Source: a phage. Taken from it: DNA of 64,000 bases. The stretch lies in sequence record PZ172995.1. One strand, given 5' to 3'. Shown in pieces: positions 44,123 to 45,945 of the stretch (positions within the stretch are counted from its first letter, which is position 1; the number at the start of each line of letters is the position of its first letter). A program made the position numbers and the translations under genes. The notes under the pieces are model-generated. The model saw nothing but the letters and a program-made list of their open reading frames with translations. It was not told the origin of the DNA and searched no databases.

Positions 44123-44301
44123 AATGACCTCAAAGTTATATTAAATTTTGTATTACATTGAGTATAAAAATAAGCTATAACACCTGACTTGTCAACAGAT
44201 TTTATAGCTTATTTGGCAGATTTTTTATAAGGCTACTGCCATCCTTCCATACATTACCTAACCAAGCCGAACATCACACAACCAGACCGAGCCGCACCCC
44301 G

Positions 44302-44385
44302 CCTTATTAAAAGACCCTGTTTAAAGACCTTTTAAAAAGGTAAGTCTCATTTTAATGTAGCTGAGACTAACTACCCATACCTCAC
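44302..44385. repeat. about 83-bp intergenic repeat, copy A, with internal hairpin AGTCTCA ... TGAGACT
   Basis: Near-identical to 45696-45779; partial third copy at 44440-44477; flanked by C/A-rich tracts. Confidence 0.7.
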
Positions 44386-44476
44386 CTTACCACGCCGAAC
44401 AGTACCGGACTATACCAGACCATGCCGAACATTGCCGAGCCTTATTAAAAGACCCTCTTAAAGACCTTTTAAAAAG

Positions 44477-44494
44477 GAGCCTCCGAAGAGGCTA
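44477..44494 (-). terminator. putative terminator hairpin downstream of 44505..44945
   Basis: AGCCTC-TTCG-GAGGCT followed by CCTTTTT on the minus strand. Confidence 0.5.
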
Positions 44495-44504
44495 CCTAGT
44501 CAAC

Positions 44505-44945
44505 TTAGAAAGGTTTTCTACGTTGCTTGTTAATGTTAGCTTTCATAGCAGCTAAATGGTTTTGCTGTTCAATCAGTCGTGAACGTTCTTGATGACTAAG
44601 TGCCATAGTGTTCACATTCTCAATTGCTTGAGTGGCTTGCTTTAAAGCACGACCAATCTTACCAGACATTTTACGTTTTGCAATAGTTGCTTGATGTTTA
44701 GGTTCAACCACACGATAACCAACACCCATTGAAGCAACCAGATAAATCTTCTCTTCTTTAAGAAGCTTCTCAATAAACTTCTCAAGTCGGTTTAGACGTG
44801 TAAGTGCATAAGCCTTCATTTCATCTTCGTACTTAACAATGTCACCTTGATAAGTTGGCTTCGCAATACCTAAGAAGGTATCCATCTCAGAATGTGATAC
44901 AGTGTCACCGTAACTAAACTTTGCTGCTAATGCTTTTGTATTCAT
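44505..44945 (-). CDS. hypothetical protein
   Basis: ORF with ATG. Confidence 0.55.
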   Translation of the reverse strand: MNTKALAAKFSYGDTVSHSEMDTFLGIAKPTYQGDIVKYEDEMKAYALTRLNRLEKFIEKLLKEEKIYLVASMGVGYRVVEPKHQATIAKRKMSGKIGRALKQATQAIENVNTMALSHQERSRLIEQQNHLAAMKANINKQRRKPF

Positions 44946-44947
44946 AA

Positions 44948-45535
44948 TTAAACGTTACCTTCTGAAATAACTTCTACAGAAAAACGACCAAAGCGTGGAC
45001 GCCAATCACCTACACCACAAAGGTTGCCAGCATTTTCCAGAACCATCAGAAGTTCCTCTCTGGTGATTTGCTCTTCATCGAACATCAAACCGAACTCTAC
45101 AGACCAGTCACGGAAGATTGGGCGGTAGCTCATAACTCGTGCTGTACCAATCTTAACAGACTTAGCATAGATAAAGTCTGGATTCTTAGCAAGTTCTTGT
45201 GGGTTTGCTGGACAGTTCTTGATAGCCATTGGGAAGACTACATCTGTCAGCATAATGGCTCGGTCAATTACCTTACCAAGTTTGTTGAGTTTTGCACCAG
45301 ACTTGATACAAGCCTCAATCATCTCACCGTTCATAACAAAACCTAGCTGCTCATCGTAGTAACAAGAAGTTACCAGTTGGCTTTCTGCTAAGAGCGCATA
45401 GTCTTCGTCAGTCTTTTTACGTTTACTGGATAGAGACTTGTGATATTTTGTCAGAGGGTTTAATGGGTCTGACAGCGTATCGTTATGGCTCAAGAAAGGG
45501 CGAGTACCAGTGATTTTGATATTTAACAGTTTCAT
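44948..45535 (-). CDS. hypothetical protein
   Basis: ATG at 45535 with GGAG RBS (track start 45550 is GTG). Confidence 0.55.
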
Positions 45536-45695
45536 AGCATTTAGCTCCACACTTTAGTTGATTGTTAAGTTGTTTGTAAAGAACCCTCAACAGAAGACTC
45601 TTTAGAAACTTGGTAGATTTTTAACGTGGCTACTACCATCCACCCTTACCGCGACACACCGAACCAGACCTTACACCACCTTACACCACCCCACC

Positions 45696-45779
45696 TCATT
45701 AAAAGACCCTCTTAAAAGGCCTTTTAAAAAGGTAAGTCTCATTTTAATGTAGCTGAGACTAACTACCCATACCTCACAT
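45696..45779. repeat. about 83-bp intergenic repeat, copy B
   Basis: See copy A; flanked by C/A-rich tracts with repeated TTACACCACC. Confidence 0.7.
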
Positions 45780-45945
45780 CACCGCACCATACTACACCTG
45801 ACACCACCTTACACCACCGCACCATACCTGACCGAGCTACACATCACTTAAAAACCCTCTTAGAAAGACTCTTAAGTGATGCTGGTGAGTACCTGTTGGT
45901 TTATGCTGCTCAGTATACTCACCAAATTTTCTATGTCAACAACTT

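Follow-up and report, generated by a model that had tools for sequence, protein, structure and literature searches.

The Viral Interference Programmable Repeat (VIPR) system was described in a June 2026 preprint, with phage SUSP1 as the type example and a representative of type II (bioRxiv 10.64898/2026.04.26.720920). Its protein component, Vipr, is a RAMP protein of ~20 kDa that is accompanied by an accessory gene, vap, and its guide RNAs, the vrRNAs, are encoded on either side of vipr in long intergenic regions and consist of 9-16 YNNGG repeats whose GGY is conserved and whose NN is hypervariable; in the SUSP1 clade they end in an invariant 3′ tail of ~40 nt that forms a pseudoknot (bioRxiv 10.64898/2026.04.26.720920). 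The NN dinucleotides pair with double-stranded DNA on either strand, skipping one target base per unit and requiring an NN match of at least 80%, and the Vipr complex represses transcription (bioRxiv 10.64898/2026.04.26.720920). The experiments on SUSP1 comprise small-RNA sequencing, pull-down, DNA binding and repression, the vrRNAs being ~100 nt long and co-purifying with Vipr, and the guides of the SUSP1 clade target a satellite phage in Escherichia coli genomes (bioRxiv 10.64898/2026.04.26.720920). Here we analyse a 64,000-nt stretch of DNA (sequence record PZ172995.1; hereafter the window) from a Felix O1-like myovirus, in which positions 44161-45939 of the minus strand very probably form a type II VIPR locus that is complete and belongs to the SUSP1 clade.

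SUSP1 (locus L026 in our collection) belongs to the same subfamily as the window phage. In both, the locus lies between a DNA ligase gene and a gp86-like gene, the vrRNAs combine GGY/NN units with pseudoknot tails, the guides follow the one-nucleotide-skip rule, and the target is a satellite in the E. coli chromosome. The two differ in arrangement, with two vrRNAs upstream and two downstream in the window as against one and three in SUSP1, and in the guide (NN) sequences, which are unlike; the window phage is a Felixounavirus and SUSP1 a Suspvirus. VIPR has already been described, mechanism and target class included, for a protein that is 97% identical, so that the window locus is a rediscovery from raw sequence.

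Two better separated systems invite comparison. Class 1 CRISPR-Cas systems, in which Cas7, Csm3 or Cmr4 sits on the CRISPR RNA, share only ~10% sequence identity with VIPR at the level of their effectors. VIPR differs from them in lacking a CRISPR array, Cas1/Cas2 and other cas genes, in being encoded by a lytic phage, and in the way the guide is read: two of every five guide nucleotides are used and the target skips one base in three, whereas the CRISPR RNA loses every sixth. The leader RNAs bound by Bacillus TRAP resemble vrRNAs in that a protein multimer binds ~11 short conserved triplets, there (G/U)AG, separated by free nucleotides; motif, fold and function differ, and in VIPR it is the free nucleotides that carry the information. 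Lastly, the same repeat that is treated here is annotated in phage wV8 as 'DR_4', as a repeat only and with no mention of its periodicity.

The Vipr and Vap1 proteins

The vipr gene (44948-45535, minus strand; alternative start GTG at 45550) encodes a minimal RAMP protein of 195 aa that is identical to SUSP1 Vipr at 189 of 195 positions (97%). The SUSP1 clade is defined by at least 90% Vipr identity to SUSP1 Vipr (bioRxiv 10.64898/2026.04.26.720920), which places the window locus inside it. The VIPR accessory protein Vap1 (146 aa; 44505-44945, minus strand) shares 99% identity with the SUSP1 protein at the same position. Vipr has a RAMP fold rather than a TRAP fold, and its C-terminal motif, with G170, G174 and G183 invariant across 47 homologues, is compatible with a glycine-rich loop.

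Neither protein is recognized by the resources commonly used for annotation. Pfam and PADLOC searches with both returned no match, and PHROGs holds both as function unknown (Vap1 is PHROG 5926). At least some 118 phage records carry a Vipr of at least 90% identity, and both genes are labelled 'hypothetical protein' in every record listed. Two genes, vipr and vap, make up this minimal locus, and its neighbours include neither a CRISPR array nor other cas genes; no other repeat array, such as a CRISPR array of identical repeats, was found in the window, which separates the locus from class 1 CRISPR-Cas.

Periodic tracts and the constant repeat

An earlier reading of the window, made from the sequence alone, had drawn attention to a near-identical unit of about 83 bp in both intergenic regions and to C/A-rich, G-poor tracts around it. 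Both observations hold. The repeat search recovered an extended direct pair of 157 nt (44254-44410 and 45646-45802; 78% identity, offset 1392 nt), within which the correct register pairs 44304-44385 with 45696-45777 at 78 of 82 positions and the core, 44323-44385 and 45715-45777, agrees at 62 of 63. Copy 2 had been placed two nucleotides out of register by the sequence-only reading. The partial third copy that had been noted at 44440-44477 is real and belongs to a 57-nt family with three copies (family D3). With regard to composition, the four tracts contain 40-53% C and 7-16% G on the plus strand over 55-85 nt, as against window means of 19% C and 20% G, and so depart from the average as claimed.

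The feature that had been missed is a strict period of 5 nt. The four tracts (44244-44303, 44372-44441, 45641-45695 and 45764-45848) read (NNRCC)n on the plus strand, which is (GGYNN)n on the minus strand that carries the genes, with 10-16 units each; the motifs CCGAAC, CCAGACC and TTACACCACC that had been singled out are present, as fragments of this array. In the 64 kb, at least 7 of 12 in-phase CC dinucleotides are found only at these four tracts, and in 50 shuffles of the window the longest run was 4-7 consecutive units. The plus strand is C-rich simply as a consequence of GGY on the RNA strand, and the G-poor tracts are four guide regions viewed in antisense. The 83-bp repeat represents the constant portion that adjacent vrRNA genes have in common, made up of the last units, the pseudoknot tail, a T-run and a spacer hairpin. 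Copy 1 (44302-44385) comprises a spacer hairpin, the tail of vrRNA3 and the last two vrRNA3 units; copy 2 (about 45694-45777) comprises the corresponding hairpin, the vrRNA1 tail and the last vrRNA1 units; and the partial copy is the hairpin that precedes vrRNA3.

The four vrRNA genes all lie on the minus strand. In the direction of transcription they are vrRNA1 (45731-45848; 16 GGY-NN units, tail at 45731-45768), vrRNA2 (45612-45695; 10 units, tail at 45612-45645), vrRNA3 (44339-44441; 13-14 units, tail at 44339-44376) and vrRNA4 (44215-44303; 11-12 units, tail at 44215-44248), the first two upstream of vipr and the last two downstream of vap1.

Guide units, tails and box hairpins

A guide set of 81 distinct tracts with 852 units was assembled from about 30 IMG/VR loci. 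Over the 852 units, position 1 is G (0.77), T (0.16) or A (0.07), position 2 is G (0.98), position 3 is T (0.89) or C (0.11), and positions 4 and 5 are near random. Five relatives compared at the intergenic regions have flanking genes that are 93-99% identical and constant parts that are nearly so, while their tracts are unrelated in sequence and differ in the number of units, the GGT-NN register always being kept. No structure is predicted for the guide tracts themselves.

The tail that closes each tract is invariant, ~35 nt long and predicted to fold as an H-type pseudoknot, and its three types share one fold. Type A stands between vrRNAs (vrRNA1 and vrRNA3), type B is the last before the gp86-like gene (vrRNA4), and type C is the last before vipr (vrRNA2). 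Stem S1 occurs as GTAG/CTAC, GTGG/CCAC or AAGG/CCTT, and stem S2 as AGTCTCA/TGAGACT, AATCGGA/TCCGATT (with G-U and A-U variants), GGTAG/CTACC or GGCAG/CTGCC. Compensatory changes occur in both helices, and 98-100% of cells are paired, compared with 24-50% in slid controls. The hairpin AGTCTCA-loop-TGAGACT that had been read from the sequence is found in both copies of the repeat, and corresponds to stem S2 of the type-A tail.

A second conserved structure, termed here the box hairpin, has a variable stem and a conserved loop, GTCTTT..GAGGGT, and stands before each of the four vrRNA tracts and before vipr (45842-45881, 45694-45732, 45572-45609, 44440-44477 and 44302-44340, all on the minus strand). 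Box hairpin 1 (CATCACTTAAGAGTCTTTCTAAGAGGGTTTTTAAGTGATG; 45842-45881) precedes the vrRNA1 tract, with a folding energy of -16.5 kcal/mol and z = -5.3, and is possibly a processing signal. Between vrRNA1 and vrRNA2 the spacer (45694-45732) consists of a T-run and box hairpin 2 and forms part of repeat copy 2; the equivalent spacer between vrRNA3 and vrRNA4 (44302-44340), with a T-run and box hairpin 5, forms part of repeat copy 1. The box-like hairpin upstream of vipr (GTTTCTAAAGAGTCTTCTGTTGAGGGTTCTTTACAAAC; 45572-45609) has a stem read from the sequence and a loop motif that matches the other boxes, and box hairpin 4, before vrRNA3 (44440-44477; family D3), has a folding energy of -10.8 kcal/mol and z = -2.1. 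As a class, the box hairpins could serve in processing, mark a terminator-promoter junction or bind a protein. The box also bears a loose resemblance to boxA (GGTCTTTAA compared with GCTCTTTAA).

Existing RNA family models do not cover these elements. The covariance models of Rfam 15 gave no relevant match at E <= 1 over positions 43000-47000, and vrRNAs are not in Rfam. The lesson for annotation is that intergenic tracts which are poor in G, have a 5-nt period and adjoin a gene whose product is ~195 aa long are guide-RNA genes.

A scan of IMG/VR with the pattern (GGTNN)6GGT returned at least 120 loci. Many are plain microsatellites, and many others, in unrelated viral contigs, comprise several tracts in which NN varies. 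Such contigs (L045-L161, for example L053, L054, L064, L070, L139 and L146), whose GC content ranges from 0.32 to 0.63, hold as many as 18 GGY-NN tracts in tandem. Each tract ends in a fixed unit, which is GGCAG, GGCTA or GGAAT GGTTT, and plain pentanucleotide microsatellites are intermixed with them. The multi-tract contigs are presumably other VIPR types.

Predicted satellite targets of the guides

A vrRNA-like match of 86 bp is present in 137 E. coli chromosomes, one of which is that of strain EC12 (NZ_CP070229; L162). There the match falls within an island of ~12 kb (L162:18147-30216) in a DUF72 gene, encoding a serine recombinase, tape-measure and baseplate proteins and an HNH endonuclease; members of the satellite family (L162, L164-L171) often also encode a DNA adenine methylase or an AP2-like factor. 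Of 5,426 complete E. coli genomes, 568 (about 10%) harbour a relative of the island, at two insertion sites, the DUF72 gene near yecD/yecN and the interval between yciI and tonB. The satellite baseplate protein is 75% and the tape-measure protein 31% identical to the window proteins.

Guides were scored by the match of NN to the target with a skip of 0, 1 or 2 nt per unit. Over a 40-kb stretch of L162 at the 80% level or above, a 1-nt skip gave 24 matches, of which 23 fall within the island, compared with two for skip 0 and three for skip 2. Across nine satellite variants at 85% or above, 57 of the 81 guides match with a 1-nt skip and none of the 81 with a skip of 0 or 2, and the guides of many Felixounaviruses match along the full length of the satellite. 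The published 1-nt-skip rule is here reproduced on an independent guide set.

All four guides of the window find predicted targets in this satellite family. The guide of vrRNA1 agrees at 27 of 28 NN positions (96%) and, over units 3-15, at all 26 of 26 (L162:26552-26590, in the tape-measure gene), a level reached by none of 300 permuted guides. This core lies in frame: its NN dinucleotides face the first two positions of each codon, and the skipped base is the wobble base. Its 26 bases have exactly one match in IMG/VR, in the same satellite, and no match in the species representatives of GTDB (596 Gb), since the satellite is strain-variable and a collection of one genome per species misses it. 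The tape-measure gene is also the predicted target of vrRNA2, at 18 of 20 NN positions (90%; L165:10361-10390 and L171:10375-10404). For vrRNA3, 21 of 24 positions (88%) match the antisense strand of a gene for 109 aa (L167:5847-5882), and for vrRNA4, 19 of 20 (95%) match across the start codon of a gene for 96 aa (L169:5036-5065 and L171:5937-5966). For each of these three guides, none of 200 permutations reached the observed level. The four guides now have concrete, testable targets.

No self-target was found in the 64-kb window, where the best self-matches (67-75%) are at permutation level, despite the homology of the satellite baseplate and tape-measure genes to window proteins. A target scan with skips of 0-2 nt over 1.4 Mb gave only noise-level matches; this sequence comprised the window together with phage relatives and with unrelated contigs of viral origin.

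Proposed mechanism and alternative explanations

By analogy with SUSP1, the locus would be read on the minus strand in the order P1, vrRNA1, vrRNA2, vipr, vap1, terminator, vrRNA3 and vrRNA4, where P1 is a promoter that would drive transcription into vrRNA1 and each vrRNA gene would supply 10-16 GGY-NN units closed by the invariant pseudoknot tail. Vipr, as a minimal Cas7-like RAMP protein, would assemble along the repeat tract, as its 97%-identical SUSP1 counterpart suggests, holding the GGY triplets and presenting the NN dinucleotides for pairing. The complex may then bind double-stranded DNA by reading NN-x-NN-x..., with one skipped base per unit, and block transcription, again as for SUSP1. 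Because the four guides match a satellite that bears tail genes, the locus is most likely an anti-satellite weapon directed against the ~12-kb integrated satellite, an apparent parasite of the phage, with its phage-homologous tail genes.

Several points weigh against this interpretation. For this phage we infer vrRNA transcription, the mature RNA ends, Vipr binding and repression from SUSP1, and the source for VIPR is a preprint that is not peer-reviewed (bioRxiv 10.64898/2026.04.26.720920). The matches of vrRNA2-4 are imperfect, at only 88-95% in the nine satellite variants sampled, and exact-pattern scans of IMG/VR for vrRNA3 and vrRNA4 gave no match. The skip bases of vrRNA4 fall off the wobble positions, since its target spans a start codon. 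Finally, the conserved box hairpins are not accounted for by VIPR.

The sequence-only reading had offered four functions for the repeats, namely an origin, a recombination hotspot, a Rho-dependent termination signal for antisense transcripts and a regulator-binding array. Taken together they were partly borne out, and none of them names guide-RNA genes on the opposite strand. The regulator-binding array came closest in spirit, in that the tracts would be periodic assembly sites for a RAMP protein and transcription would be repressed, the sites being on RNA rather than DNA and on the minus strand. A related idea holds that the (GGU-NN)n tracts are leader-RNA sites for a ring-shaped TRAP-type protein that controls termination at the hairpin and T-run behind each tract and so regulates downstream genes. 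TRAP sites are (G/U)AG triplets with spacers of 2-3 nt, a periodicity similar to the three conserved and two free nucleotides seen here, and a hairpin followed by TTTTT stands after vrRNA1 and vrRNA3. In ASO1B, however, the same tail lacks the T-run, the adjacent protein has the RAMP fold and not that of TRAP, and NN acting as a mere spacer would not match a satellite at 85-100% in a single skip register, so that this explanation is scarcely credible. We give equally little credence to the proposal that antisense transcripts are stopped at Rho-utilisation sites formed by the plus-strand tracts, or that the tracts, G-rich on the non-template strand, promote R-loops which prime replication as an origin. 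The composition of the tracts over 55-85 nt is compatible with a rut site, and a strong promoter precedes them within the replication-gene block. Rho binds Y-C, whereas the conserved plus-strand letters are R-C (A/G-C), and that promoter drives the minus strand; the only plus-strand promoter-like site in the region is weak (9/12), lies inside vipr (45229-45256) and points away from the tracts of the first intergenic region. Nor is there support for an origin from GC skew, which does not turn at the locus: its sign flips at about 40.5 and 51.2 kb, tracking switches in gene orientation, with no change at 44-46 kb. An origin would be expected to show an inflection in strand composition, iterons or an AT-rich unwinding element; the repeats contain G/C and lie on the transcribed strand. 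Neither Rho nor R-loops would require a strict 5-nt phase, a covarying tail and hypervariable NN.

The remaining alternative, that the repeats are mainly recombination substrates, so that intergenic modules flanking a mobile two-gene cassette mediate its gain, loss and shuffling, fares slightly better and is still very unlikely as an account of function. The promoter-stem-loop (PeSL) elements of T4-type phages provide a model for it, and the cassette is indeed missing in Felix O1, Tf and fBSPA4, which retain one or two modules at the site, while the number of modules per genome varies from 1 to 5, some records having 3-5 matching places. This variation in module number and cassette presence makes it probable that recombination between the constant parts happens; it would be a consequence, a side effect of the locus, rather than its function. 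What recombination leaves unexplained are the 5-nt register, the division into GGY and free NN, the covarying pseudoknot and the 1-nt-skip matches to the satellite, all of which VIPR accommodates. VIPR is likewise the better explanation where narrower candidates were considered: an R-loop-primed origin, with a G-rich non-template strand past a strong promoter; two-tetrad G-quadruplexes; a sponge for tRNA 3′-RCCA ends, by analogy with the GGU motif of RNase P; mimicry of Chi, an exact site for which cannot be in phase with the repeat; boxA-like antitermination (GGTCTTTAA against GCTCTTTAA); and tandem consensus pause sites.

Distribution in Felix O1-like phages and orphan vrRNAs

The window phage (Felixounavirus) has 259 related phage records, with 92-96% identity over 2.7 kb, and its upper intergenic region is closest to that of Escherichia phage dune (98.7%). 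VIPR is widespread in this Felix O1 group, to which classical typing and biocontrol phages belong. The GenBank record of wV8 (NC_012749) lists 'DR_4' as a 58-bp direct repeat at both intergenic regions with no comment on its function, and remarks that Felix O1 has no homologue of either gene enclosed by the repeats.

Vipr is present in about 118 records, compared with 231-259 that have the vrRNA region, so that about half of the Felix O1-like phages lack vipr. Both vipr and vap1 are absent from Felix O1 (FO1a), Tf and fBSPA4, and searches of the complete FO1a genome (L172 and L173) by tblastn and with a hidden Markov model of the family found no vipr. Between the ligase and gp86 genes (FO1a, L003:3838-4119; Tf, L005:3869-4156; fBSPA4, L004:3911-4495) these three phages retain one or two intact modules, each with promoter, box hairpin, 11-18 units and pseudoknot tail. 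The orphan guides have a canonical GGY in 74% of units, as against 76% in phages that carry vipr, and half of them still match E. coli satellites; the guide of FO1a is among those that lack an E. coli match.

That vrRNA genes persist and work as orphans, with no Vipr encoded in cis, is a tentative proposal, and one that we consider rather doubtful. Such orphans could be guide-only freeloaders that use the Vipr of a co-infecting relative or helper phage, or they could be decoys that soak up the Vipr of a rival. A duller alternative is repeated recent loss of vipr and vap through recombination between the flanking constant parts. The occurrence of orphan vrRNAs in about half of the Felix O1-like phages is possibly a new point, and the vrRNAs of satellites that lack Vipr may be a second; the words 'orphan', 'Felix' and 'wV8' do not occur in the main text of the preprint, which does mention vrRNAs encoded by satellites (bioRxiv 10.64898/2026.04.26.720920).

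Satellite-borne vrRNAs were also encountered in the present material, at L162:20030-20099, L163:20030-20099 and L168:3876-3945, all on the minus strand and each with 14 units and a tail of the phage type C. These account for three of the ten satellite loci examined, which carry a vrRNA and no open reading frame of the Vipr family. The best match of the satellite vrRNA is at 22 of 24 positions in the host intergenic region between torZ and cmoB, outside the island (L162:15477-15512); it has no match in the phage window or in the other satellites sampled.

Promoters, terminator and neighbouring genes

The genes of the locus are all on the minus strand, and the neighbours of vipr and vap1 include genes for the ligase, hypothetical proteins, dihydrofolate reductase and thymidylate synthase. 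The promoter P1 (45912-45939, minus strand) is of the sigma-70 type, TTGACA-16-TATACT, with 11 of 12 consensus positions; it is located directly 3′ of the ligase stop codon, reads into vrRNA1, and is kept in all relatives compared, those without vipr included. A literature search for a Felixounavirus transcriptome found none. Downstream of vap1 lies a hairpin followed by T5 that resembles an intrinsic terminator (44471-44496, minus strand) and is annotated as a terminator in phage ASO1B.

Between the ligase gene and P1, a small unannotated open reading frame for a hydrophobic protein (MFSTVILFILVVFVLSYVASKLL...) was seen on the gene strand in wV8 (L002:2870-3039) and fBSPA4 (L004:4326-4495), and is absent from the window. 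Elsewhere in the window, an origin would more plausibly be sought at ~51.2 kb, in the divergent region upstream of the DNA polymerase gene, than at the 44-46 kb locus.

At the far end of the array, a second promoter-like site, P2 (44161-44214, minus strand; TTGACA-17-TATTTT), stands upstream of the gp86-like gene (43739-44122). Its -35 hexamer lies in the loop of a perfect inverted repeat of 13 bp (I2; AAATAAGCTATAA / TTATAGCTTATTT) that is followed by T's, and this inverted repeat could be an operator, or a terminator of the vrRNA array that overlaps a promoter.

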